Of a DNA stretch of 64,000 nucleotides, positions 1 to 18,673 are shown piece by piece. The notes below the pieces were generated by a model. The model did not search any database, was not told where the DNA came from, and saw only the letters and a program-made list of their open reading frames with translations. Numbering within the stretch: the first letter of the stretch is position 1; each line of letters begins with the position of its first letter. The DNA is from a virus: positions 1-64,000 of the IMG/VR virus record IMGVR_UViG_3300020048_000014; one strand, written 5' to 3'. The position numbers and the translations under genes are program-made.

Positions 1-122
1 GAACGCCAAAGAGCACGCACCCCTATCAGCGGGTGCGAGCGTCGATCACGAGGTTGATGTTGAAACTACAGGCGAGCATGTAAACAGGGCGGCTGATAGG
101 GGTTGCGTGTCTCGTCTTGTTC
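1..122 (-). mobile_element. attC-like hairpin A (truncated at window edge)
   Basis: GAAC...GTTC ends; gagcacgcacccctatcagc pairs with gctgataggggttgcgtgtctc, leaving two unpaired extra bases. Confidence 0.7.
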
Positions 123-167
123 TCCCCTCTTCATTCTCTTGGTTGGCGTGGATCGCTGCGTCATGGG

Positions 168-626
168 TCATCCTAGCTCCGTTCGTAGGTGGTCAAAGCT
201 ACTTCCAGACAATGGATACCCTCCGCTCCCTGTGGGTAAATTATCCAGTGACAATGGTCCTCCAGATGGCGGCAGTGGGAATTCTGTCGGCACGCTTACT
301 AGCCACCCGTCAGGAGGTTCAGGCGACGGACTCGTCGCCTGCTCGTAAACAAGATGACCAACATCAATGAATTGCTGCATGGTGATTGACGTAGCCTCGT
401 AAAGCGAGGGGAGCGGGAACCCGAAGCCGCACAACGTGATATAGAAACCCATAAACTGACCCAAAACGCTCTTGCTCCAAACGGTAAACTTACCCTTAAT
501 TATGCCCACCAAATCAAACTTAGTTCCGCCCGATGACTTCGGCTCGGACTCGCCAAATTCTAACTCAGCGTTATCTGGCATCTTGCCACCAATAGCGGAT
601 TCGATCTCTTCACGGGATGGTTTCAT
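168..626 (-). CDS. Cassette-like hypothetical protein (152 aa)
   Basis: ATG about 19 nt after the GTTC core of hairpin B on the minus strand; stops shortly before hairpin A, as a canonical cassette gene would. Confidence 0.55.
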   Translation of the reverse strand: MKPSREEIESAIGGKMPDNAELEFGESEPKSSGGTKFDLVGIIKGKFTVWSKSVLGQFMGFYITLCGFGFPLPSLYEATSITMQQFIDVGHLVYEQATSPSPEPPDGWLVSVPTEFPLPPSGGPLSLDNLPTGSGGYPLSGSSFDHLRTELG

Positions 627-644
627 AGGTGGAAATTTCTTGGA

Positions 645-725
645 GAACGATCAAGTGGTGGCACGCCGGAAATGAAGCTCGAACTCACCACAGACGTTAT
701 CGGCGTTGCCTCGCACGCCTTGTTC
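645..725 (-). mobile_element. attC-like hairpin B
   Basis: gaacgatcaagtggtggcacgccg ... cggcgttgcctcgcacgccttgttc imperfect inverted repeat with extra bases. Confidence 0.65.
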
Positions 726-971
726 GGCTCTTCTGTTTTGATTCGGAGGGGTGGACATGCCGCACCATCGCCGGGACAATTCCGATACGTGAGGGCGACA
801 TACATCGGAGCGCGAGGCCACCAAGTATGCTGCCGACTAGAGCAGGACGACCCGGATGCGTGCGTCGGATACTGCACCAAGAAAGGTGACGTGGGATGGT
901 GGGGACGCTCTATAATGTCTTTGCCGAACGTCAAAGTGCGCTCACCGCGCAAAATAATCGTTAATGATTAG
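672..971 (+). CDS. Hypothetical protein running from the loop of hairpin B to the loop of hairpin C
   Basis: 99-aa ORF with ATG start; start and stop lie in hairpin loops. Confidence 0.5.
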   Translation: MKLELTTDVIGVASHALFGSSVLIRRGGHAAPSPGQFRYVRATYIGARGHQVCCRLEQDDPDACVGYCTKKGDVGWWGRSIMSLPNVKVRSPRKIIVND

Positions 972-1014
972 TTAAAGAAAAAGCTTATGAGCGGTTGAGC
1001 GACACGTCTTGTTC
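923..1014 (-). mobile_element. attC-like hairpin C
   Basis: gccgaacgtcaaagtgcgctcaccgc ... gcggttgagcgacacgtcttgttc. Confidence 0.7.
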
Positions 1015-1035
1015 GTTTTTCTTTTTCTTTGATTC

Positions 1036-1293
1036 GTGAGAGTAAATAGGAATATGAAGGATGACAAATCGATATCAGCGGAGAAAACCTATGAAACTTA
1101 TCACGCAATACTAGGGCTTGTGGGAGAGTGGAATGATTCAGCAGAAAGAATATCCAAGCTGGGGAAATATGTCAATCGTGGAAGATGTCATGCAGCATCG
1201 GAGGCATATCGACAATGCGCGAAAGACTTGGCTCTAATCTTCAGTATTTTCGAGGTTCTTCAATATGACAATCAGATCACGATTGATGATTGA
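1036..1293 (+). CDS. Hypothetical protein (cassette C-D)
   Basis: 85-aa ORF with protein-like composition. Confidence 0.45.
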   Translation: MRVNRNMKDDKSISAEKTYETYHAILGLVGEWNDSAERISKLGKYVNRGRCHAASEAYRQCAKDLALIFSIFEVLQYDNQITIDD

Positions 1294-1495
1294 GTTCTGT
1301 GGAATTCTTTGTCTGTCATAATCACCATAACGTAAATATCCGCTTTCTCTCAACTCGTTCAAAGAGTCAATGAAAGAATTGTTCATGTGTAATGGCGCAA
1401 CCCATTTGGAATCACTTTGAAGTTTCTCTAATACTAATGTAGCGAAAAATGATAGCATATTGACTTTCTGGATGTGTGTGTTAAATTAAAGAGGT

Positions 1496-1783
1496 ATGAA
1501 TGATAATTTAAACGAACGTAAAAGCGCACCTACGGGTGTAAATGAATCAGAAAATGAAAATAAATTGAACAGCAATGACCTGTTAGGTGACGCGGCTTGT
1601 TCGGCTTCTTCATTAGATAATGTGCTTGATGCTTTGTCACATCAGCAGGAATTACCGATTGAGAGTCTTATGAGTAAAAGTCCAAATCAAGAAGAAGTTC
1701 TGAAAGAAATGACTAAGCGGTTACTAAGCTTAAAAGGATCTATTAATTCCTACTTCGAGCAATCAAAAGCCCCATTATCTTAA
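1496..1783 (+). CDS. Hypothetical protein reading through hairpin D
   Basis: ATG preceded by GAGG; 95 aa. Confidence 0.5.
   Translation: MNDNLNERKSAPTGVNESENENKLNSNDLLGDAACSASSLDNVLDALSHQQELPIESLMSKSPNQEEVLKEMTKRLLSLKGSINSYFEQSKAPLS
1514..1605 (-). mobile_element. attC-like hairpin D
   Basis: gaacgtaaaagcgcacctacgggt ... acctgttaggtgacgcggcttgttcggc. Confidence 0.72.
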
Positions 1784-1955
1784 ACTCATCATCAAATCTT
1801 TTCAATTCTTGGTCTTGATATTTTTGGACCGTTTCTTCATCACCAAGTTTGGAAATTAATTCTTCCCGATGTTCGGATGAAAGATCTTTAACTAATTTGA
1901 GGTATTAATCTATTATTACTTGCAATTCTTGTAGTAAATCTGAAGTGGTTTTCAT
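1743..1955 (-). pseudogene. Cassette-like ORF with in-frame TAA at 1905-1907
   Basis: MKTTSDLLQELQVIID*YLKLVKDLSSEHREELISKLGDEE...RSRN*; starts about 25 nt after hairpin E on the minus strand. Confidence 0.5.
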
Positions 1956-1980
1956 ATTTCTCTTTCTTAAAATTTTCTTT

Positions 1981-2072
1981 GCCGAATGTAAAAGCGCACC
2001 TACGGGTGCAAATGAACAAGAAAATGAAATGAACAAGGAAGCTTCTGACCCGTTAGGTGGCGCGGCTTGTTC
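1981..2072 (-). mobile_element. attC-like hairpin E (close relative of D)
   Basis: gccgaatgtaaaagcgcacctacgggt ... acccgttaggtggcgcggcttgttc. Confidence 0.72.
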
Positions 2073-2133
2073 TGATTAAATAATGTTGAATAGATCAACT
2101 CTAGCTTGACCTATAATACAAAATCAAAACAAT

Positions 2134-2334
2134 ATGGACACATTTAAAAAATTTTTCAAAAAAGTTAATCCAGATATTGACTATGATCCAACTCAGCTTG
2201 AGATAGGTATTGGTGAGGAAATGGAACACACCAATAACCGGAAGGTTGCCGAGACTATTGCGAAACATCATCTAGCATCCAATCCACATTATTATTCCGA
2301 GTTAAAGAAAATGGAAAAGAAATTTGATAAATGA
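2134..2334 (+). CDS. Small conserved phage protein (DUF5661-like)
   Basis: GxxEExEHT...IAxxHL...YY pattern. Confidence 0.6.
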   Translation: MDTFKKFFKKVNPDIDYDPTQLEIGIGEEMEHTNNRKVAETIAKHHLASNPHYYSELKKMEKKFDK

Positions 2335-2478
2335 AAAAACGAATACTTGATTTTAGCTCAGATGAGCAGAGAACTATTATGTTGGACATTTGTAATCGCA
2401 TTTATATGGCTAGAAATATCACTTTATCTGAAGAAACTATTTTAGACGAGTTGAAAAAAATCGATTGCCTTTTCAGAA

Positions 2479-3144
2479 ATGGTGGGTATAATGATGAAGA
2501 TGAATGTTGAACTAATGACCTACTTCGGGTCCGACTTAATGGTAGTAAATGTGGCAAAGGTTTCCTATAATAAGGAAAGTGAAGCAATGGGGAACAAAGA
2601 AGAGAGACTTCTCAAATACTTAGCGGATCATAAACATACCACACCGTTCAGACACCCACAATTACAATTCAGAATTGAATGCCCAATTTTTGTAGAACGT
2701 CAATTATTCACTCACCAAATTGGATGGGCTAGAAATAGTATCAGCGGAAGATATGTTGATTTTTCTGACTCATACTGGTATCCAGAAAAATTTCGATATC
2801 AATCGAAAGATAGTAAACAAGGGAGTTCTGGTGAATTATCAGATAAAGATAATGAATATTTTCGAGTAAAATACGCTGTTGTTTTAGAACAATGTAAGGC
2901 ATTATATACAGAGATGGCAGAGTTTGGAATAGCGAAAGAGTTATGTCGAGCACACCTACCACTGGCTCTTGAAACTAAGTTTATCTGGACTGGTAGTTTT
3001 CACGCATTTACCCATCTATGTAATCTGAGAATTAAGCCAGAAGCTCAAAAAGAAACTAGAGATCTGGTGGCAGGAATGTTACAAGCTGTAAAAGATATAC
3101 CGGAAAATCCTTTCAAATATTCCCTAGAAGCATTTAAATTATGA
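2479..3144 (+). CDS. thyX: FAD-dependent thymidylate synthase (true start probably a later Met)
   Basis: HTTPFRH, CPIFVERQL, variant ThyX motif FTHQ...NSISGRY, ELCRAHLP. Confidence 0.9.
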   Translation: MVGIMMKMNVELMTYFGSDLMVVNVAKVSYNKESEAMGNKEERLLKYLADHKHTTPFRHPQLQFRIECPIFVERQLFTHQIGWARNSISGRYVDFSDSYWYPEKFRYQSKDSKQGSSGELSDKDNEYFRVKYAVVLEQCKALYTEMAEFGIAKELCRAHLPLALETKFIWTGSFHAFTHLCNLRIKPEAQKETRDLVAGMLQAVKDIPENPFKYSLEAFKL

Positions 3145-3557
3145 ATAAAAAATTTAGAGCATTTTATAAACCAGATTTAGATACTCCTGATGGAGCTTTG
3201 AAATTTGAACAGATGGTCATTGAAGATGAGTTATTATTTGTATATGATTCGGATATCTGGTATTCTTTTGAAATACCATTCTTAGATGATGATTGGGTAG
3301 TTCAACAGTATCTGGGATTCCAAGACGATAATGGTGTTGATGTTTATGAGGGGGATATTGTGGAATACAGAAGTTGGGATAATGAATGGGAAAAACTTTC
3401 AGCAATAAATAAAGATGTTGTCGAATTTAATAACGGAAACGTCTATCCCAAACCTTATCATAATGATTGTGATGATGGATTCTATTCTCATGGCATAGAT
3501 CAATATAAAATCATTGGAAATATATTCGAGAATCCAAAATTGCTTGACAAAAAATAA
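3141..3557 (+). CDS. YopX-family protein
   Basis: KFRAF...QQYLG..D.NG..VYEGDIV...IIGNIFENPKLL. Confidence 0.85.
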   Translation: MNKKFRAFYKPDLDTPDGALKFEQMVIEDELLFVYDSDIWYSFEIPFLDDDWVVQQYLGFQDDNGVDVYEGDIVEYRSWDNEWEKLSAINKDVVEFNNGNVYPKPYHNDCDDGFYSHGIDQYKIIGNIFENPKLLDKK

Positions 3558-3580
3558 CTATTCTACTAAATATAGATACT

Positions 3581-3787
3581 ATGATTGGTGATATTGTTCG
3601 CGTATCGGAAAACGCTGTGCGTTTATGTTGTAATAAAAAAAATTGTCCTACTGTAACAGATCTGGGAAATGGAACAGTTGAGATTGTCGATGACTATGGA
3701 AACAAAGTCATAATGAAAAAAGAAGAAGCTCTTCTTTTATCCGATGGTGTTAAAACCTTAAACGGAGAAAAATTACTTCTTGGCTAA
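3581..3787 (+). CDS. Hypothetical protein (CCxxxxCP)
   Basis: ORF after TAAATA motif. Confidence 0.7.
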   Translation: MIGDIVRVSENAVRLCCNKKNCPTVTDLGNGTVEIVDDYGNKVIMKKEEALLLSDGVKTLNGEKLLLG

Positions 3788-4070
3788 TTTATTATTACTC
3801 TCTGGTTCCATGATTGGACTGTGTTTGATTATAAAATACAGCACGATACTGAATGTTCCTAGACTTCACCTAACTAAAGTAAACTTTTTTAAAGAATTAA
3901 TATCATGCGCTCAATGTTTAGGATTTTGGATAGGACTCATATATGGTTATATATGGACAGACTCAGTTTTGGTTTCCTTGCTATTAGCATTTTACTCTTC
4001 CTTCATATGTTGGTTGGCTGACCATATTATGATGGTAATTTGGAAGTATCTGTATCCCGATGAAGAGTGA
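3780..4070 (+). CDS. Small membrane protein with CxxCxGFW motif (DUF1360-like)
   Basis: Hydrophobic segments, SCAQCLGFWIG. Confidence 0.6.
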   Translation: MANLLLLSGSMIGLCLIIKYSTILNVPRLHLTKVNFFKELISCAQCLGFWIGLIYGYIWTDSVLVSLLLAFYSSFICWLADHIMMVIWKYLYPDEE

Positions 4071-4271
4071 ATGTCATTGTGTAGCTGAAAAAGTTGCAAC
4101 TATATCAGTTGCTGAATATAATAATGATAATCAGCTCGAAGTTTCATATATATAGAGGTCTGCGAAAATTGCAAGAAATGGTATGAAAATTTAGGTTTGG
4201 GATTAACTGATGATAAAATTAAAAAATATTTCGGTTAATATTTTTTAATTAATGAATTATTAAATAACTTT

Positions 4272-6476
4272 ATGTTAAAGTTTAAAGATTTACATATGAA
4301 ATTACTTTCCGAGAAGTTTTATACTTATAAAATGCCGGATAATAAATCTCTTACTATGTATGATTTTTATGTATTGGATTATCTGAAGTCTATTCTAGAT
4401 TGGCCATCGAAAAATTTTAGAGATCTCCCAACGGATCTTGTCGATAGTGTGAACAATGCCGTTCAAAATCTTTATCCTGCACTTAGACAGGAATTACTCG
4501 ATGTTGTTTTTTATGCGGTGTGTGCTGAGATCAGGTATGCGGAGAATAGTGGTCGGAAGGATCATAATAGACGGATAGCTAAATCGAATCCTAAGTTTGA
4601 GAAACTGTATAAACTGTGGGCAAAATATCAAAACTTTCACGGAAAGAGCCTTAGCCAACGCGAGGAGTTGACAGATATTTATGATATTAGAAAACCATCA
4701 GCTAAAAAAAGAACCCCACAATCTGAAAAAAATAACAATGAGGCGAGGAACTTATCTTATAAGGGTGCTCAGTATGCTATAGAAAAATCTGGATATTCAC
4801 ATGCAGATTTCATGGAGATGTGTGAAGAGCTATATAATGAAGGATCATGGGATAGTTCTTATGGTGGAAATGCATGGGGAAATATTTGTAGAGGATGGCT
4901 AGATTTAAACTCTGCCGATAAGATAGATCCAAATGTTAAAGAGGTGAAGGAAGTCGATTACGGTGCTGGGCGTAAGGATGAGGATGGAAATGAAATAAAG
5001 TCATCTAAGAAATCAGATACTAAACCGACGAAGGCTGCTAAAAAACCGATGAGTGTGGCAATCGATCACATTTACGATTTACAACACAATACAGATACAG
5101 TTTTCAATAAACTTAAATCATATTATAAAGGCGGGTATCGGTGGATTAAAACGGCACTCGACGACAAAGCTAATGTTAAGAGTTACCACAATCTTTTAAG
5201 TAAAGCTTCTGGGACTGTAAAGGCAATGGCTTTACCTGTTCTATACAATAAGTTGGGACAAACATGGGAAAAAGAAATGAATGTTCAAAAGCCCGTGGAC
5301 ACTCATCCACAAGTGACATCTATGGAAGATGCCTTCGCCCAAGTTAGTGGTAATAGTGTTGATGATATTAAGATCGGGGATCATTTTCAAAAAAGTCACA
5401 GCACCGAAACTTATATAATAATAACCAATGTTGGAACTAGTCACCTAAACTACGATCTCTATAAAAAACGTAAATTGGTCGATGATGGTTATAATATAAC
5501 AAAAATTGAATTTGACAACGTATTAAAAAATGGTAGTTGGAAAAAAATCCCCGCTCCCAAATTGTCCGATAGCCAACCAAAAGTAAGTCATGTGGGGGCT
5601 AAGGTTGGAGATATTTTAATACCCGGTGGGACTAATAGTAGTAGTCGGGCGATTCTTACAATTAAAAAAATTACTAGTGATTCGTATATATATGATATAT
5701 TTAAAAAGGGAGAATTGGTGGAATCAGACTATGCGTATGATAAAAGCTATATTGATTCCATGATTAAAAGTGGAGATTATAAAATAAAACGTAATGAAAA
5801 ATCAAAAACGGATACATCCTTAAAGGTCGGGGATATATTCATGGATGCAAAGAGAAAATCTTCTTTAAATAATAAAGCTACTAAAGCTACTTACGTAATT
5901 ACCAAAGTTACTCCAACCACTTATATATATGATATTTTTGAAAAAGGTAAAAAAGTAGTATCCAATTTTGACGCCAGTAAACCATATATAGATATGTCTA
6001 TACAAAAAGGAGTATATCTTATTAAGAACGACACAACCCCAATAGTAAAATCTCCAAGAATTACCTCGCAAACTTATAGAGTTAACATCAATGATAGTGT
6101 TGAATGTATTGATGATAGTTTTGTTCCTCATGGTTCTAAATTAGCCATGGGTAAAGTGTATAAAGTTACAGAACACAGTAAAACAACCATTCAGGTGGTA
6201 GATGATGTTGGAAATAAAAAATGGTTTAGAAAAAATAGATTTGAGCCAGTAAAATTACCACAACCAATCGCAAAAAATTCTTCAAAATTTAAAGTTGGTG
6301 ATTGGGTAATTGTTTATGGGGCAACAGAAAATTATCCCGGACAGATTATAAAATCTGGTAAATCACATGATGACTGGGATAAAAGATTTTATTTAGTCAA
6401 ATTTCAAAATCAATCATTAGGGGAACGGGAACAATGGTTCACCTCAAATGCATTGAAACTTGATGACCAAATATGA
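4272..6476 (+). CDS. Large hypothetical protein with internal repeats, possible virion protein
   Basis: 734 aa; three K(V/I)GD...YD(I/L) repeats and two short beta-rich C-terminal domains. Confidence 0.85.
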   Translation: MLKFKDLHMKLLSEKFYTYKMPDNKSLTMYDFYVLDYLKSILDWPSKNFRDLPTDLVDSVNNAVQNLYPALRQELLDVVFYAVCAEIRYAENSGRKDHNRRIAKSNPKFEKLYKLWAKYQNFHGKSLSQREELTDIYDIRKPSAKKRTPQSEKNNNEARNLSYKGAQYAIEKSGYSHADFMEMCEELYNEGSWDSSYGGNAWGNICRGWLDLNSADKIDPNVKEVKEVDYGAGRKDEDGNEIKSSKKSDTKPTKAAKKPMSVAIDHIYDLQHNTDTVFNKLKSYYKGGYRWIKTALDDKANVKSYHNLLSKASGTVKAMALPVLYNKLGQTWEKEMNVQKPVDTHPQVTSMEDAFAQVSGNSVDDIKIGDHFQKSHSTETYIIITNVGTSHLNYDLYKKRKLVDDGYNITKIEFDNVLKNGSWKKIPAPKLSDSQPKVSHVGAKVGDILIPGGTNSSSRAILTIKKITSDSYIYDIFKKGELVESDYAYDKSYIDSMIKSGDYKIKRNEKSKTDTSLKVGDIFMDAKRKSSLNNKATKATYVITKVTPTTYIYDIFEKGKKVVSNFDASKPYIDMSIQKGVYLIKNDTTPIVKSPRITSQTYRVNINDSVECIDDSFVPHGSKLAMGKVYKVTEHSKTTIQVVDDVGNKKWFRKNRFEPVKLPQPIAKNSSKFKVGDWVIVYGATENYPGQIIKSGKSHDDWDKRFYLVKFQNQSLGEREQWFTSNALKLDDQI

Positions 6477-6517
6477 TTCAAATATATCTACGATATCGAC
6501 AAAATAATATAAATTTT

Positions 6518-7168
6518 TTAATTCTTAGCGTAATAATCAAGCCAAACTTGATCAGATAATCCAAAATCAATAAGGACTATAGTGGGAACACCATTTCGAA
6601 GAACTTCGCCATATGTATTAGCTCTAGTAAAATCTCCGGGAAATGTCATATCGAAATTTTGAATCATATCCCATAACTGTCCTACAAATTCTTGATTATT
6701 GAAATATTCAATTTGTTCCGGTGATATTTTAACATCGTATCTACTTTTCTTATGTAAGAAAGCTAAATGTTTAAAATGTAAATCTAAATCTTGAAGACTA
6801 AATCCCAGTAGTTGTTTAAACCTATTCGGATTAATTTTCTTGGCTAGTTCCATTTCAAGATAAAATGGCCCTTCATCTTTAATAGTGTCGCCAATTTTAA
6901 ATACCTTCGCTACTATATCACCATACCATTGTTGGATAGTGTAATCTTTTTCTGTGCTGTTCTGTGCCAATCCTTTAATATTTTTAGCAACTTTTAAAAC
7001 TTTTTCATCATCTATTTTAAAAATGACTCGGGATGAACCAGATGCCATCCTTTGAAGATGTTGGGTAGCATATTTGATCTTTCCTCCATACGATGGAATA
7101 GAATCAAACTCTTCAAAAGAGAATGAAACAGGATAAGCCATTTCGCATAATTTTTGGAAAGACATCAT
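6518..7168 (-). CDS. Protein-kinase-like fold protein
   Basis: GSSRVIF, VLKVAK, D...NTYG and LIDFGL resemble kinase subdomains. Confidence 0.55.
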   Translation of the reverse strand: MMSFQKLCEMAYPVSFSFEEFDSIPSYGGKIKYATQHLQRMASGSSRVIFKIDDEKVLKVAKNIKGLAQNSTEKDYTIQQWYGDIVAKVFKIGDTIKDEGPFYLEMELAKKINPNRFKQLLGFSLQDLDLHFKHLAFLHKKSRYDVKISPEQIEYFNNQEFVGQLWDMIQNFDMTFPGDFTRANTYGEVLRNGVPTIVLIDFGLSDQVWLDYYAKN

Positions 7169-7177
7169 ATAATATAT

Positions 7178-7540
7178 TTAATCAAGCTTAATACTATTAG
7201 GCTTGATAGTCTTCACATACATTTCACCATACGCTTCTAATTCACCAGTAATGAATTGAAATTGTCTCTGAGATAAAGAATCCAGATTTCGTAACTTAGC
7301 ATATGCTATTTTATACTTTTCTTTTAATAGATCATCCCTATCGTCTTTGTCAGCTATCATCAAACCTTCAGCATAAGGCTTGACCTTACCAGCAAAGTGA
7401 AAACCTGTCAAAATGGCATAACCTCCTTTTTGTTCAGCGGCACGTTGAATCTTAAGAGCACCAGCCGCCCTACTCTTGACAAACTTAATAAAGTCGTCCT
7501 TAAAACCTAAAACTTTTTCCAAAAGAGTTTGAAATTTCAT
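7178..7540 (-). CDS. Hypothetical protein, putative internal head protein
   Basis: MKFQTLLEK N-terminus; TAAATA upstream. Confidence 0.7.
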   Translation of the reverse strand: MKFQTLLEKVLGFKDDFIKFVKSRAAGALKIQRAAEQKGGYAILTGFHFAGKVKPYAEGLMIADKDDRDDLLKEKYKIAYAKLRNLDSLSQRQFQFITGELEAYGEMYVKTIKPNSIKLD

Positions 7541-7581
7541 ATATGTATTTATTTCTCAAATCGTAAAATCCAGTAATAACT

Positions 7582-7944
7582 TTACCTTTCACTATTTGCT
7601 TTCTTCACATATGCAAGAAATTCTTCTGGACTGAAAATATGTTGATCAGGAATATTATCCATAATAGAAGAACTATCAAAGTCATCTTCTGTATCATCTT
7701 CTAAATCATATCGAGTTATATCGACATTTCCCGCATCATCTTCATCATAACTCCAATTGTAATTTAAAAAATTCCAAATTACTCCTTCTATTTCATAATC
7801 ATCCGCATCATCTCCTTCACGCACTTCCCCATATTTCCTGAATATTTCTAAGGCGTCTCTTTTATAAGAGTTTCCAAAATTATGAGTAATCATATTGGTG
7901 ATTTCCATATATAACGATTCTAAAATAATTTGATCCTTATTCAT
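7582..7944 (-). CDS. Acidic hypothetical protein
   Basis: 120-aa ORF, TAAATA upstream. Confidence 0.75.
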   Translation of the reverse strand: MNKDQIILESLYMEITNMITHNFGNSYKRDALEIFRKYGEVREGDDADDYEIEGVIWNFLNYNWSYDEDDAGNVDITRYDLEDDTEDDFDSSSIMDNIPDQHIFSPEEFLAYVKKANSER

Positions 7945-7970
7945 ATTTGTATTTAATGCGACATATCTAA

Positions 7971-8444
7971 TTAATACAACTCATTCTGCATACCCAATAA
8001 ATAATCACTATCCAACTCTTGTATTATCTTGGAAGATTTTACAATTGCAGGATTGATTATAATAATAGAAAGATTATTGTTTCTAATATCCCCCTCACCA
8101 GTATTCTTATAAAAAGCAAGATCATACTGCCCCAAATCTTTAACGTAATCATAACCGTGATCAGAACCATCATCCGGTAACAAAGTAGGATAAATGTTAC
8201 CAACTTTCACAATCAATTCATATAAGTAATAGGTATCGTATTTTTCCTCATCGTTAATCATATAGTCCGCTCTAATCAAAGCTTGCTGTTTGGTGCCAGC
8301 ATGAGATCCAGATGTATAATCATTTTTATTAGGCCTAGCGGAAGATCTATAAACTTTAAGGTATTCGGAATTTTCCAAATCTTCAAAAGCAGTTGTTGGC
8401 GATAGTTCTATTATCTTATAAAAGAATTCAGAAAAATTTGGCAT
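7971..8444 (-). CDS. Hypothetical protein
   Basis: 157-aa ORF, MPNFSEFF N-terminus, TAAATA upstream. Confidence 0.75.
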   Translation of the reverse strand: MPNFSEFFYKIIELSPTTAFEDLENSEYLKVYRSSARPNKNDYTSGSHAGTKQQALIRADYMINDEEKYDTYYLYELIVKVGNIYPTLLPDDGSDHGYDYVKDLGQYDLAFYKNTGEGDIRNNNLSIIIINPAIVKSSKIIQELDSDYLLGMQNELY

Positions 8445-8538
8445 ATAAATATTTAATTACTTACTGATTATAATGTATGATACTTGTGACATTAAGACAG
8501 TTAGTGTAGTGTATATAATACATTAATTTTTTCTTGGG

Positions 8539-8664
8539 GGATTTTAAGAGATTTTTATTAAAAAAATATTTTTGATATAGGTAGGATTTTAAGGAAATTT
8601 TATTAAAAAAATATTTTTGATATAGGTAGGATTTTAAGGAAATTTTATTAAAAAAAATATTTTT
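8539..8664. repeat. AT-rich 45-bp direct repeat, about 2.8 copies
   Basis: ggattttaag recurs at 8539, 8584 and 8629. Confidence 0.9.
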
Positions 8665-8701
8665 CCATGGCGGGGGGTCTAAAAAAATCTAACAGCCCCC
8701 T

Positions 8702-8807
8702 CTAACCAATTCCTAACAGGAACCTGATAGATCCCTATCAGGAACCTATCAGCTCCCTGACAGAACCTTGTTAGGAAACTGTCAGGGATCTGTCAGTGAT
8801 CGGTTAG
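8702..8807. repeat. Ten heptamers (CTRNYAG-like) in exact 11-bp phase
   Basis: ctaacca, ctaacag, ctgatag, ctatcag, ctatcag, ctgacag, ttgttag, ctgtcag, ctgtcag, cggttag, each separated by 4 nt. Confidence 0.85.
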
Positions 8808-9001
8808 GCCGGAAGCTTTTCCGCTTTTCCGCTGGCCGCCCGGATCTCTTCCGCCGTAAACGGGGAGGTGACTAAGCTCTTGAAGATGTTCAGGAGGTCT
8901 GAAACATCCGACTCTTGAGCCGCTTGCTTGGCTTGCAAAGCCCGGAGGGACTGGCGGGTAAAGGCTCTAATAAATTTCGGATTGCTGGTCATGGTCGTCA
9001 T
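8804..9001 (-). CDS. Hypothetical protein (GC-rich)
   Basis: 65-aa ATG ORF. Confidence 0.65.
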   Translation of the reverse strand: MTTMTSNPKFIRAFTRQSLRALQAKQAAQESDVSDLLNIFKSLVTSPFTAEEIRAASGKAEKLPA

Positions 9002-9124
9002 GGTAATTTATGGTGTATTGATTGGAGTCTTTCACTCCCGGCGGCCCCTAGGATGCACCTAGGAGCCGCCGGGAACGCCGCCCCCTATCCCGGTGAAGGA
9101 ATAGGGGGCGGACCCCTCAGAAGG

Positions 9125-9580
9125 TCATGCGGTCGCTTGACCAGCCTTTGCCGCTTGGATCATGCTCATGATCGAAGATTCTGATAGATTCAGGGCTTTG
9201 CCATATTTCCGGATTTGAGTTTCGAGGCCCGCAATAGTCGGAACCTTGCTAATAGAATCCGCATAGTCGCGGAGTTTGATCGCTTCCCAAGCGTCCCCAA
9301 TTAGATCCAGAGTCTGAAACTCTGGCATTCCATCGGCGTCATAGATAGGCAAGCTATCCTCCCCGAGGACTTCGACCGTCTTGAATCGACGATCCGAAGC
9401 GACTTGGAAGAGGACTTCCAAGCATTCTTTTTCACTCATGGGAACGGCGGGCGCATTTTTCACCGCAGGCGGCCTGGTGAAATCGAGTCTGAATTCCGCC
9501 AATTGACTTTTTAGTGACTCGCTTACGCCGAAAGTGAATTGCTTTTTGGCGGCGGTGGTGGTAGTGGTAGTGGTAATCAT
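9125..9580 (-). CDS. Hypothetical protein (GC-rich, Thr-rich N-terminus)
   Basis: 151-aa ORF behind an AAACACTA motif. Confidence 0.8.
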   Translation of the reverse strand: MITTTTTTTAAKKQFTFGVSESLKSQLAEFRLDFTRPPAVKNAPAVPMSEKECLEVLFQVASDRRFKTVEVLGEDSLPIYDADGMPEFQTLDLIGDAWEAIKLRDYADSISKVPTIAGLETQIRKYGKALNLSESSIMSMIQAAKAGQATA

Positions 9581-9589
9581 AACGTCTTT

Positions 9590-9910
9590 ATTCTAATTTA
9601 GTGTTTAATCAATCTCGTTTGCTTCTTTCGAGAGCTTCCCGCATCCGTTCTGGCCGGATGAACCATTTTCTGTTCTCATTCTCTCTTAGTGTTTAATCAA
9701 TCCCCCCGCTTGCCGTATTCAGCAGCTAGGGAATCGATCAAATCAGGATCAGCGTCAATGGAGATAATAATCACGTCACCATTCTCTCTTAGTGTTTAAT
9801 CAATCCCCCCGCTTGCTGTAAGCAAGCAGATAGGGAATCAATCAAACGTGATTATCTTCATTTTTCACTGAAGATAATCACGTCACCATTCTCTCTTAGT
9901 GTTTAATCAA
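9590..9910 (-). repeat. Tandem promoter-motif units with short hairpin-containing spacers
   Basis: attctctcttagtgtttaatcaa three times, tagtgtttaatcaa four times; two units also share tccccccgcttgc. Confidence 0.85.
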
Positions 9911-10040
9911 ATTTTTCAGCCATCCATTCAAAAGCTGTTAGGCCAGCTTTCGCCAAGGTATTAAATACCTCCGGAACTGGGTTACTATCTACATAGATAG
10001 CACTAAGAATGATAGCAATAAAGAATAGATAAATCTTCAT
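9903..10040 (-). CDS. Small hydrophobic protein (45 aa, not in ORF track)
   Basis: MKIYLFFIAIILSAIYVDSNPVPEVF...; motif variant upstream. Confidence 0.6.
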   Translation of the reverse strand: MKIYLFFIAIILSAIYVDSNPVPEVFNTLAKAGLTAFEWMAEKFD

Positions 10041-10252
10041 AAAGTGATTCTAAGCTAGTGTTCAATCAATTAAAGTCTATAAATCCAATCATCTTCATCC
10101 AGAAGATAAAATAAATCTTAATTATCTTAATCATTTTTATTTTAAATGTTTTTAATTCAATTAACCATTGACATATTCTTATCTTCATGATAAGATATTT
10201 ATACCTAAGAATAATAGAGAGCAGGAGCAGGCTCACACGGGCGCGGGTAGGG

Positions 10253-10369
10253 ACAGGCTCACACAGGCTCACACAGGCTCACACAGGCTCACACAGGCTC
10301 ACACAGGCCCTCACAGGCCCTCACAGGCCCTCACAGGCCCTCACAGGCCCTCACAGGCCCTCACACAGG
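10253..10369. repeat. 10-bp tandem repeat: ACAGGCTCAC x5 then ACAGGCCCTC x6
   Basis: Read directly from sequence. Confidence 0.95.
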
Positions 10370-10417
10370 GGCATTCTCTATAAGAATTTATAATTTTATA
10401 GTATATAAAGGGAATGC

Positions 10418-10456
10418 CTATTCTCGATTGTATCACCACAAAGCAATCGAGAATAG
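10418..10456. other. Perfect 13-bp inverted repeat
   Basis: ctattctcgattg / caatcgagaatag. Confidence 0.8.
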
Positions 10457-10665
10457 GACTTTTGTTTTACCACCACAGCAAAAAGTTTATAGTATATACA
10501 AAGATATTATATTGATAAAGATATGGTGATGTGACACTTTGTCACACTTTATTATCAATGCCACGCCACTGTAAGTTATCCACCCCAGTGCAAGCTTTCT
10601 GACAAACTTAATTAAAGTTATTAAATCAATTTTTTTGTCAAATCAACTTTTTTATTATATTGAAA

Positions 10666-10905
10666 TTAGAATAGTTTCGGAGTGAAGATCTCTACAATCT
10701 TGTTGTAGAGATTACCATGCATGTACTTAACCTCATCAGTATAGGGAGGAAGAGGGATAGAGATAAAGTCAGGATTGATGATCCAATTTTTGACTTGAGA
10801 CTCAGAGATATTTCCCACGATAATACCTAGAGCTTTTAGCTCATGCTCAGTAAACTCAACAGAAAACTTACGGGTGACAGGCGGGGTTAATTCAGTAATG
10901 TTCAT
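10666..10905 (-). CDS. Hypothetical protein
   Basis: ATG 6 nt after motif -10. Confidence 0.8.
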   Translation of the reverse strand: MNITELTPPVTRKFSVEFTEHELKALGIIVGNISESQVKNWIINPDFISIPLPPYTDEVKYMHGNLYNKIVEIFTPKLF

Positions 10906-10934
10906 ATCAGTATTCTACGGTAGTGTTTTATCAG

Positions 10935-11087
10935 TTAAAGAATCCATGAAGTATATCGACCAAGACGACCTTCGTTGATATACCTAAGATCATGACAACC
11001 TTTATGAGTTCGCATGAATGCATAACATTCATCACGGGTTCCTTGGAACATAACATCTTGATGCACGTTTACAACAGCTAACTTCAT
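10935..11087 (-). CDS. Small protein (50 aa, not in ORF track)
   Basis: MKLAVVNVHQDVMFQGTRDECYAF...; full motif upstream. Confidence 0.7.
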   Translation of the reverse strand: MKLAVVNVHQDVMFQGTRDECYAFMRTHKGCHDLRYINEGRLGRYTSWIL

Positions 11088-11206
11088 ATCAGTATTCTAC
11101 GGTAGTGTTTTATCAAAAATTATGTCGTTTGTCTCTAGGAGAAAACAACTTTATATGCTTGTATATAAGCATATCGTTAAATGTCATCTAACAGAAATAG
11201 TCATGA

Positions 11207-11377
11207 TCATTCCTGATCATTGAGAGTTCTCAACTGCTCTTTAAGATCTTTAAGATCCGATTCAAGCTCATTAGTCTTATCAATACCTAATTGATCGACA
11301 GTATCGCCATAATCATCATACAAAAATTCACTCAAACTGTCAATCTGATCTACTAAGTCGAGATATTCACTGGTCAT
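11207..11377 (-). CDS. Small acidic coiled-coil protein (56 aa)
   Basis: MTSEYLDLVDQIDSLSEFLYDD...; motif upstream. Confidence 0.7.
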   Translation of the reverse strand: MTSEYLDLVDQIDSLSEFLYDDYGDTVDQLGIDKTNELESDLKDLKEQLRTLNDQE

Positions 11378-15974: not shown

Positions 15975-18673
15975 TTATCGATTGATCTCGGCCCAAACTT
16001 CATCAGAAGTTTTCTTTGCGCCGAAGTAATCATAAAAACTGATACCACCATCTGATTGGAGATCCCTAGCTTCCCAGTAACATCCATTGATAGAAAGTTT
16101 ATAATATCCAGTAGCTGGAATAAACTTACCAAGTTTCTTGAAAAGATTGAATACAATTTGAGGCGACATGCTCTTATTCTATTATAGTGTTTTATCGTCT
16201 TACCTAGTCAGTCTTGATTGTAATACTTTTTAGCATTAACTTTCTTCTTAAATCCTCTCCATCCGCCACCAACACGAACAAAGTATTTATATTTGTAGGG
16301 ATATAATTCTTTAGGATTATCCAACATCATGATACCATTCTCAGTTGAATAATCAAGATCTTGGAAGATGTATTGTTCAATGAATTCACCAGAATCATCA
16401 GGATCAATTTGATAGTCTTTAAACATGTCCTTATTATAGATTAGTGTTTAATCCTTAACTACCCACATATGAACATCAAATCCTTGGTCCTCATACTTCT
16501 TACGTTTTTTATTGGCCCTATAAACATCACCGATGAAATGTTTAGCATGTAAGAAAGGGACATCTTTAACCCAAGACCATACCATGATTTGATATTTACC
16601 AATATGTTTCATAGACTTAACAAGGTTTTCCAGTCTTTGGGTTTTATGTAGTTTTGTGGTCATCATACTTTTATTATAGTATAGAGTTTATTAGATTAGT
16701 TCATCGACCAATCATAATATCCATCAGGAGAACAACGCTCCATGGTTTTTTCATCATCAACTTGCTTGAGTTCCTTTTCAAACTCATAGTCTTCATCGGG
16801 ATAAGTTTCCTTCTGATCCTCATCAAGTTCATATCCATTCATCTTCAACAATTGAATTGCTTCCTTTGGCAGTTCATAGACTCCATCATAATCACTTAGT
16901 TCACTATTACCATTGAACCATAATCCGATCACTGTTTCATCTTCATTAGCAGCTTTCTTACCATAGTTCCAGATGATATAACCAGAATATCCACCCGGAT
17001 GAATAACTAATTCCATACGATTAAAGTGCATACCAAGATAACTACTTTGAGGATTAAGTTCTTGTTTGAATTCGATTACGTTCTTCATACTATTATTATA
17101 GGTTAGTGTTTTATTTTTAAAATTTCAAGTCAAGACTATCAGCAATAATTTTTGAATCAATATTTCCACGACTTTTAAGATCGAGACTAATCGATTCACC
17201 ATAACAAAAAACCTCCCCATCAATAAAATTGATAAATCCAGCACTGACTACATCAGGCCCAAAATCTCCTTCCATAAGTCTTGCAGCATGATCATGTTGA
17301 ACCGTTGAAGGGAAGATCATGAATTGATTATTCTGATCGATGATATATTTTAGTTTTGTCATAATTAGATAGTGTAAAACTTATTATCATCAATGGGATT
17401 ACCATTGAGAAATGCTTGACCTTTACGAGTTGATACATTCACACCCGGAATACCATTAAGTCTTTCACGGGTAGTATTAGTATTCCATCCGCAGAGTGAT
17501 ACTTTAAGGACATCATTGACATGATCTTTCACAGCAATAAGATTACCATGAAGCCACATGCGGTTCATGAATTGATCAGATGATACTTCCATATTATCTG
17601 ATTTGAAATTTTGATTATTTTCAAATGCTTCAACCGTTTGTTTAGTGATCTTTCTCATATCAGTATTATAGTTTAGTGTTTTATCAATGTAAATGGATGA
17701 ACAAATCCAGTAAGTTTAGTAATTGAATTATACAAAGGATTGGGTTTACTTTTACCTATCATTTTCCAACATACTCTATTAAGATAATCAAATCTCCAAT
17801 GTTGGATTCTAATAGAATCACCGAGAGTCCAAGCAGGTGATGTTAATGTTAATGATAGATCATCGTTTTTGACAACGTAAAGTTTATATCCAATCCAGCA
17901 AACTGTTATCCAATCACCGGGAAGTAAATCTTTAGTTGTCATCAAGATTATTATCTCTCATGAATTCCAAGAATTCTGTAAGAACTGGACAAAAATATTC
18001 ATCATCGAAACTACAACAAGCAGTAATTGGAACCTTACACATTTTTTTCATGATGGAATACATTTCCCTCACCCTATCAGTAAGAGGGAGAATTTCTCTC
18101 TCATAACCTTGAAGATGAGCTACTGATTCAGCAACAAAGATTAGTTCTTTAATGTTCATATAAGTTCGTTAATACGTTCTACTAGTTTTCTAACTTCTTC
18201 CTTAGCCCTTTGTTCCTCTCTCACAAAGGTTTTATTAAAATGCTCCGAATAGTATTCAACATCCCCAAATACTTTATAAGCAATCACACAATACCACTCC
18301 AATCCAGTATAAAATGGTCCTGTGATTTTAAGGATACTTCCAGCAGGGATTGTAAGTTCATCGTTTAGATTGATTAGCTTTGACATATCAGTATTATAGT
18401 TTAGTGTTTAATGAATGCTTCAGGCAGGATTTTCTTCAAATCATCATTATATTGGTTATTGATTAGAGTAATATCCGATAACTTTTCAGCATATAGATAT
18501 TGCAATCTATCAATCAAAATCCGAGCAGCATCCCCTTCAACAATCTTGAATGGTTTGAACCATCCTTGATAAGAATTGATATAAACTTTATCGCCTTTAA
18601 ACTCCTCAATCTTTCCCCATAAACAATAGGGATATCGATCATAAGACCAGAATGCGTATAGTTCTTGATTCAT
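15975..18673 (-). other. Run of ten small hypothetical genes (64-130 aa)
   Basis: 15975-16169, 16208-16426, 16448-16666, 16696-17088, 17117-17362, 17365-17658, 17673-17945, 17932-18159, 18156-18386, 18401-18673; abutting or motif-led. Confidence 0.75.

Follow-up and report, generated by a model that had tools for sequence, protein, structure and literature searches.

Integrons are the classic gene-capture device of bacteria, and only few clusters of their attC sites have been reported from phages, each from a single genome. Such arrays are referred to as CALINs (clusters of attC sites lacking integron-integrases), a term which reportedly covers two or more attC sites lying close together with no integron integrase nearby. 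T4-type phages are further said to contain PeSL (promoter early stem-loop) cassettes, which carry modules of stem-loops and promoters in hyperplastic regions and whose shuffling is ascribed to homologous recombination. The closest described systems are the CALINs of lytic phages of ~49 kb, in which two to three canonical, co-oriented attC sites are located between small open reading frames (ORFs) and no integrase gene (intI) is present (Qi et al., 2023, PMC9892861). Here, we describe an array at positions 1-2075 of a stretch of 64,000 nucleotides, called the window in the following, which represents the first 64 kb of IMG/VR virus record IMGVR_UViG_3300020048_000014. With a probability of about 80%, we regard this array as a CALIN of a T4-like virulent phage which is located upstream of DUF5661-thyX and reshuffled by integron-type recombination, probably by the integron integrase (IntI) of the host. 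Phage CALINs as such were already published in 2023; new are the T4-like genome of 197 kb, the large and dynamic array (at least five sites here and nine in a variant, with cassettes turning over among near-identical phages), a conserved resident site adjoining the backbone, phage-type promoters inside cassettes, and a predicted anti-defence cassette in one variant.

The record is linear, 196,721 bp long, 96% complete as judged by CheckV, and has a GC content of 34%. It encodes a T4-type major capsid protein gp23 (PF07068, E-value 7e-87) as well as rIIA/rIIB genes, which together with the absence of a recombinase from the record (see below) indicates a virulent phage of the T4-like type that stems from an uncultured community. 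The first ~950 bp had been described as GC-richer than the rest, and bases 1-1000 indeed contain 53% GC versus ~34% genome-wide, with the step falling within the array.

The five hairpins of this region are confirmed as genuine integron-type attC sites, the plus strand corresponding to the attC bottom strand. The original prediction had noted them as imperfect inverted repeats, all of which were retrieved, with slightly wider coordinates if the R boxes are fully included. They are listed below with their scores in two covariance models, namely R1, built from the five phage sites only, and R2, built only from the ten attC sites found in three class 1 integrons located on resistance plasmids; note that the alignment for R2 was made with R1, so that its register leans towards R1.

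1-125, plus strand (bottom strand of attC, as in the following): attC site 1, belonging to cassette I; R1 76 bits, R2 22.6 bits; perfect inner stem of 11 bp
642-728, plus strand: attC site 2, belonging to cassette J; R1 70.7 bits, R2 32.0 bits
923-1017, plus strand: attC site 3, belonging to cassette B; R1 96 bits, R2 36.5 bits (top match in the window)
1511-1605, plus strand: attC site 4, belonging to cassette C; R1 97 bits, R2 32.1 bits
1981-2075, plus strand: attC site 5 (A*, resident); R1 95 bits, R2 24.9 bits; R' box degenerate (GCCGAAT)

Read on the plus strand, the 5' half consists of a box ending with AAC, 6 unpaired nt, helices of first 3 and then 6 bp, a further stem (4-11 bp) and a 30-70-nt loop, and the 3' half of the return stem, an unpaired T, 6 bp, an unpaired base, 3 bp, 5 unpaired nt (GNCTT) and GTTC. 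This structure is kept at site lengths of 84-125 nt and with variable loops. Sites 1-4, and 29 of the 30 members of the sequence family, have the AAC...GTT triplets of the attC consensus for the outer repeats (RYYYAAC / GTTRRRY), with AAT in site 5. On the hand-set structure, 97.6% of the paired cells are actually paired versus 79% in shuffled sequences, none of 500 shuffles reaching the observed value, and the pairing falls to 29-46% if the 3' partners are slid by 1-3 columns. Compensatory changes between the five sites occur in nine of the 13 inner stem pairs. A strict pattern of the family gave no match in 1.1 Mb of bacterial DNA, which places the hairpins far beyond chance, and no site beyond the five was detected by R1 in the 196,721-bp genome.

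Evidence for the nature of these sites comes from the reciprocal detection by the two models. The top ten matches of R1 in the three class 1 integrons are exactly their ten attC sites, which follow aadA1, aadA2, catB8, cmlA1, qacL, blaOXA-101, aac(6')-Ib, estX and a HAD-hydrolase cassette, all of them on the predicted strand, directly downstream of the cassette genes and in full-length register. Conversely, the five phage sites rank first among the R2 matches on both strands of the 64-kb window with 22.6-36.5 bits (E-values 2.5e-8 to 4e-4), the next match scoring 14 bits. The unpaired extra bases on the same arm and the variable loops, which had been taken as attC architecture with the top strand on the minus strand, are therefore substantiated by both geometry and covariance models, with R2 serving as a substitute for the attC model of IntegronFinder. 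A scan of the window at Rfam gathering thresholds returned two tRNAs only and no attC family. The class 1 sites (those of aadA1, aadA2, catB8, cmlA1, qacL, blaOXA-10 type and estX) share the identical spacing of R boxes, spacer, 3- and 6-bp helices and two extrahelical bases with the phage sites, as well as the conserved TTGTT at the junction of the 3' spacer and R''. They differ by their length of 57-70 nt, compared to the 84-125 nt of the phage sites with their large loops, which are AT-rich in sites 3-5, and by R boxes starting with GTTA or GTTG instead of mostly GTTC; moreover, no intI1, attI1 or Pc was recognized in the phage.

The hairpins separate gene-sized inserts, as had been proposed from their positions, for example the gene for a 152-amino acid (aa) protein between sites 2 and 1. 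On the minus strand, each cassette begins with the TT of a G|TT crossover and ends with the G in its own attC, and thus reads from right to left. The cassettes of the window are as follows.

168-626, minus strand: gene of cassette I, 152 aa, in canonical orientation on the attC top strand; GC 52%
648-928, minus strand: cassette J, 281 nt including its attC, without a convincing ORF; GC 58%
929-1516, no single strand: cassette B, 588 nt, at least 97% identical in nine contigs; GC 38%
1517-1986, minus strand: cassette C, 470 nt, corresponding to cassette D of related phages truncated at its right end; GC 34%

In every cassette of the window, the four variable bases of R'' are complementary to the first bases of the same cassette and not to the neighbouring box. 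Over 23 distinct cassettes from all arrays, the variable R'' positions match the start of their own cassette at 83 of 92 positions, compared to 47 of 92 for the physically adjacent box. This is the footprint of cassettes which have been excised as circles and reinserted at G|TT.

None of the cassette genes of the window matches a Pfam or PHROG family. The 152-aa protein of cassette I has six homologues with 45-100% identity and 31 invariant columns. Two of these homologues, encoded by a second phage (L017) and by an array of bacterial type (L018), are flanked by attC sites of the same family; an identical copy is present on short contigs from other samples. Its AlphaFold model is poor (mean predicted local distance difference test score of 63), and Foldseek searches against PDB and BFVD returned no match with an E-value below 0.1. 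Cassette B contains two convergent small ORFs at 1054-1293 (plus strand, 79 aa) and 1234-1458 (minus strand, 74 aa), and its nine copies show too little variation to indicate which of the overlapping ORFs is under selection. The motif TAAATA-N5-ATG at 1043-1056 precedes the plus-strand ORF. The top-strand ORF of cassette C (~1955 to 1746, 71 aa) is interrupted by a TAA codon at 1905-1907; since contigs L015 and L023 read CAA (Gln) at this position, the gene is broken in the present record only.

The comparison with related phages, all of which are represented by metagenome assemblies, supports the original prediction that cassettes are captured or shuffled, because the differences among the related contigs consist of whole cassettes with their ends at the attC crossover. 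A lookup of the flanking DUF5661 protein yielded 13 contigs from other samples which encode the identical protein next to arrays. Behind the same DUF5661-ThyX flank, at least 12 samples exhibit five cassette orders with ~15 distinct cassettes, demonstrating the gain, loss and reordering for which relatives were to be compared. The orders are given from left to right on the plus strand.

Order 1: I-J-B-C-A*, window and four other assemblies (J-B-C being seen in L026, L028 and L031)
Order 2: I-K-L-B-C-A*
Order 3: flank-N-O-F-B-D-E-G-H-A* in L023, and O-F-B-D-E-G-H-A* in L024
Order 4: B-P-D-E-A*
Order 5: Q-A*

In contig L015, cassette J is replaced by cassettes K and L (951 bp), while the sequences to the left and right agree with the window to 99.7-100%. 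This agreement breaks off directly behind the R' box of site 3 (GTTCGGC) and resumes at the crossover of site 2, so that the divergence starts and ends at the G|TT of R' boxes. Site 2 and its counterpart in L015 are unrelated attC sites, sharing only CG ahead of G|TT. Site 5 is located next to the backbone in every variant (10 contigs, at least 93% identity), and four different cassettes abut it, namely C, H, E and Q. The array of L023 is complete, consisting of nine attC sites and eight cassettes with AT-rich phage DNA at the left boundary; n cassettes with n+1 sites are as expected from insertion into a single resident attC. In the present record, the array runs off the left edge as had been suspected, the first base of the contig falling within the R' box of site 1. 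A further three assemblies, among them L015 and L016, end 70-77 nt into the same site, and these breaks in four assemblies are probably caused by near-duplicate copies of attC confusing the assemblers.

Other routes to relatives were less productive. A search via a 734-aa neighbour protein returned one weak partial locus only, exact-pattern scans with the arm of sites 4 and 5 found nothing in viral and genome contig collections, and a 16-mer scan of IMG/VR gave 19 contigs which were all chance matches, none of them with an R1 match. Bases 1-2100 and 2100-10000 showed no DNA similarity to 50,697 phage records.

The original prediction had found no integrase in the window, and this extends to the whole record. 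A six-frame search of the 96%-complete genome with profiles for tyrosine recombinases, integron integrases and serine recombinases (PF00589, TIGR02249 and PF00239) gave nothing at an E-value of 1 or below, tblastn with IntI1 found nothing in the record or in 15 related contigs, and no IntI-like match was detected in the related contigs examined, including the left flank of the complete array of L023. The proposal to inspect the upstream sequence for a recombinase and attI needs a correction: with the attC top strand on the minus strand, both are expected not off the left edge but to the right, on the side of DUF5661, where ordinary phage backbone is found. The integrase-proximal end there consists of site 5, 58 nt and the DUF5661 gene, and no attI-like element was recognized by inspection, no attI model having been applied. 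The locus thus presents five co-oriented sites within 2,075 bp, spaced 290-645 bp apart, without an integrase in the record, as in a CALIN; the intI gene next to the array which would make a complete integron is not found in the record, of which ~4% of the genome is missing.

As the enzyme acting on these sites, IntI of the host appears most likely, because a recombinase is missing in the phage record, its attC sites represent canonical substrates of IntI, and recombination by IntI1 was demonstrated for attC sites of other virulent phages (Qi et al., 2023, PMC9892861). At the outset, a single resident attC, now site 5, would have been present in the leader of the DUF5661-thyX operon. Circular cassettes would then have been inserted and excised at this and later sites by attC x attC recombination, catalyzed by IntI supplied by the infected host and acting on attC hairpins folded from single-stranded phage DNA. 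Expression of intI is commonly under SOS control and T4-type replication provides abundant single-stranded DNA, both of which would favour attC folding during infection.

A view on the wider distribution of these sites shows that all sites of the arrays belong to one sequence family with the consensus AACG...GTTG...CGNCTTGTTC. Homogeneous attC families are typical of cassettes from one lineage, as in the Vibrio cholerae superintegron. In this respect, and by its small cargo genes of mostly unknown function, the array resembles sedentary chromosomal integrons, from which it differs by its location in a virus, its mixed GC content (34-58%) and several bottom-strand genes. L017 is a 140-kb scaffold of a distantly related T4-like phage (GC 41%, rIIB 48% identical) with a four-site array of the same family at 9864-11285, next to rIIB and thus at another locus than in the window. 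One of its cassettes contains a 64%-identical homologue of the 152-aa gene, flanked by sites of this family. The same scaffold carries a solitary attC at 18295-18419, ~7 kb away, and one cassette with a DUF551-like ORF on the bottom strand. Contigs L018 (1-3764) and L032 (1-1736) consist of GC-rich (~60%), co-oriented cassettes with the same attC family and Imm22-like, DMP19-like and BamE-domain genes, and look like a bacterial integron array. One 150-aa cassette is common to these two contigs, in which it has different neighbours. The sequencing run of L018, SRR8925747, is listed in a gene catalogue of full-scale biogas plants (PMC7842101). The suggestion that the GTTC core could mark the donor lineage has to be abandoned, since the same family also contains GTTG and GTTA. 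Base four of the core lies in the variable section of the R box and covaries with the start of its own cassette, and GTTC is not diagnostic; the four variable positions often depart from RRRY (GTTCGGC, GTTCTCC), and GTTGTGC and GTTAGGC are also seen.

Seven of the AT-rich cassettes (B, K, O, F, E, G and H) end with a promoter-like module consisting of TTGACT, 16-17 nt, TAAAT(T/A), a stretch resembling a Shine-Dalgarno sequence (SD) and ATG, which is missing in the GC-rich cassettes I, J, L, N and P. In cassette B, the module is located at 1460-1516 (TTGACT-16 nt-TAAATT, SD, ATG) and points rightwards across the junction. At cassette ends in the window, L023, L015 and L027, its ATG lies 21-24 nt ahead of the crossover. 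Promoters of the same type precede genes at ~60954 (minus strand), 97204 (minus), 128815 (minus) and 149105 (plus) of the genome, while the T4 late-promoter motif TATAAATA is not enriched within the window. In a circular cassette, the module would be placed just upstream of the cassette's own attC and gene, and after integration it would face and drive the neighbouring cassette. The AT-rich cassettes may therefore be phage-adapted or phage-made, and GC-rich ones such as I and J may represent recent imports from the bacterial cassette pool. Putative plus-strand ORFs begin in the module and cross the next attC hairpin at 1496-1783 and 1945-2079 of the window and at 2411-2713, 3559-3846 and 5263-5625 of L023. 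Such read-through ORFs were rejected as a general feature: the frame is open through sites 4, 5, H and F, but stops occur in all three frames in site 3 and others.

A hint to the function of the cargo comes from cassette L of variant L015 (GC 54%), which is not present in the window. It encodes a 64-aa member of PF21825 (L015, 1025-1219, minus strand) which matches the whole profile with 70.6 bits (cut-off 24.8, E-value 1e-19) and has homologues in 71 phage records. PF21825 represents Sequestin, a 3'cADPR sponge blocking type I Thoeris, with T4 Y16O as a member (preprint 10.1101/2025.07.12.664507). The L015 protein has R7, E11, Q46 and R60 where the essential residues R7, E11, Q45 and R59 of SequestinB lie (10.1101/2025.07.12.664507), as read by eye from the unaligned sequences. 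The gene is located on the bottom strand, in the same direction as the phage backbone genes. From its metagenomic sequence, cassette L is thus predicted to encode a Sequestin acting as anti-Thoeris sponge.

The array has parallels to the PeSL cassettes, which likewise comprise small accessory genes in a plastic early region of T4-like genomes, are flanked by stem-loops and promoters and differ between relatives. If the hairpins were regulatory stem-loops of this type and the cassette differences arose solely from phage homologous recombination between similar repeats, this would account for the conserved promoter-like module beside the hairpin of the AT-rich cassettes, for the attC sites within arrays being 83-97% alike over ~90 nt, for the identical 61-nt stretches at some cassette ends and for the existence of deletion derivatives. 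We consider this explanation unlikely, because the stem-loops of the array are attC sites with integron crossover footprints: their geometry is identical to that of class 1 attC, R1 and R2 detect each other's sites, and the same sites occur in GC-rich bacterial-type arrays. Moreover, unrelated attC sites such as site 2 and its counterpart in L015 were exchanged with only 2-3 common bases at G|TT, and 83 of 92 R'' positions complement the first bases of the cassette to which the site belongs. Rather improbable, too, is a recombinase encoded by the phage itself or a relative which escaped recognition, either in the missing 4% of the genome or because its sequence has diverged beyond the reach of the profiles. 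It is indeed at the array locus that the record is incomplete, but the three recombinase profiles give no signal at an E-value of 1 or below in 196.7 kb, the related contigs examined contain no IntI-like match even in the left flank of L023, and the sites are canonical IntI substrates by geometry.

The array might also be an inert relic, i.e., a bacterial integron block which was acquired once by illegitimate recombination and is now decaying. The missing integrase, the degenerate site 5, the stop codon in the gene of cassette C and the deletion derivative represented by cassette N fit this picture, which we nevertheless judge very improbable in view of at least five orders and ~15 cassettes behind one flank, four different cassettes abutting the resident site, precise junctions and phage-type promoters inside cassettes. 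A second phage lineage, which possesses an independent array of this family elsewhere in its genome, argues in the same direction. Finally, a chimera of bacterial integron DNA misjoined to a phage contig during assembly would place a GC-rich part at the contig end, as is observed, and produce a fall from 53% to 34% GC within the array. Its probability is close to negligible, however, as the backbone adjoins, without a break, AT-rich DNA of the array which comprises cassettes B and C as well as sites 4 and 5, the attC-DUF5661-ThyX junction recurs in 13 contigs from independent samples and assemblers, and the order J-B-C-A* recurs in four.

The reading of the locus as a CALIN reshuffled by host IntI has to be balanced against several observations. 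Integrase, attI and Pc promoter were not found in the searches described, and the enzyme is therefore inferred. Because T4-like phages rapidly shut down their host, an integrase of the latter would have only a short time for its action. A bacterial source was also sought in vain among the genomes covered: R1 did not find the family in 24 chromosomal IntI1-like betaproteobacterial integron loci, the lone 30-bit match being an ordinary attC, and the family pattern occurred in 401 evenly drawn Gammaproteobacteria genomes about as often as a reversed-pattern control, without clustered matches. The resident site 5 carries its degenerate AAT triplet in the present record. Cassette N is cassette I with an internal deletion of 210 bp, cassette C is a truncated D, and a 61-nt end is nearly identical in cassettes E, H and B, which indicates that phage homologous recombination also reshapes the array. 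Lastly, repeated attC sites could cause mis-joins in the assemblies; here, the main orders recur in four to five independent assemblies.

To the right of the array, the phage backbone continues with genes identified by Pfam matches.

2076-3144, plus strand: backbone right of the array, comprising a 58-nt leader, the DUF5661 gene (2134-2334), a gene for a 59-aa protein (2331-2510) and ThyX (2479-3144)

Further GC-rich islands are present elsewhere in the genome. One of them, at 8700-9600 of the window (52-57% GC), contains two minus-strand ORFs (65 and 151 aa) with no attC nearby; the 151-aa protein has 22 metagenomic homologues and belongs to no Pfam family. On its borders, the island has a 45-nt tandem repeat (8539-8673) and a 41-nt direct repeat present in four copies ~100 nt apart (9589-9927). 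Another one at 175250-176750 of the genome, outside the window, reaches up to 55% GC and has no R1 match. In addition, a 10-nt unit is repeated in tandem in ~16 copies at 10223-10382 of the window, shifting from ACAGGCTCAC to ACAGGCCCTC in AT-rich surroundings.

Regarding its biological meaning, the locus can be compared across more than 12 natural samples and exhibits the gain, loss and replacement of whole cassettes at the crossover in a strictly lytic phage. This raises the questions of whether a host integrase is able to act on the genome of a virulent phage during infection, whether such arrays are exchangeable anti-defence toolkits, and whether phages transfer cassettes between bacterial integrons. 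The cargo may well serve the infection, for example by anti-defence functions, and the many small cassette genes without known function are candidates for anti-defence screens. As a tentative proposal, which we see as possible rather than probable, site 5 would represent a dedicated landing pad for cassettes, an attC kept in an early operon's leader, by which T4-like phages exploit host IntI to sample, stockpile and reshuffle small genes, including anti-defence genes and phage-made promoter-bearing cassettes, with cassettes flowing both ways between phage and host. If this is true, the array would be the phage-side counterpart of the bacterial "integrons as defence biobanks".

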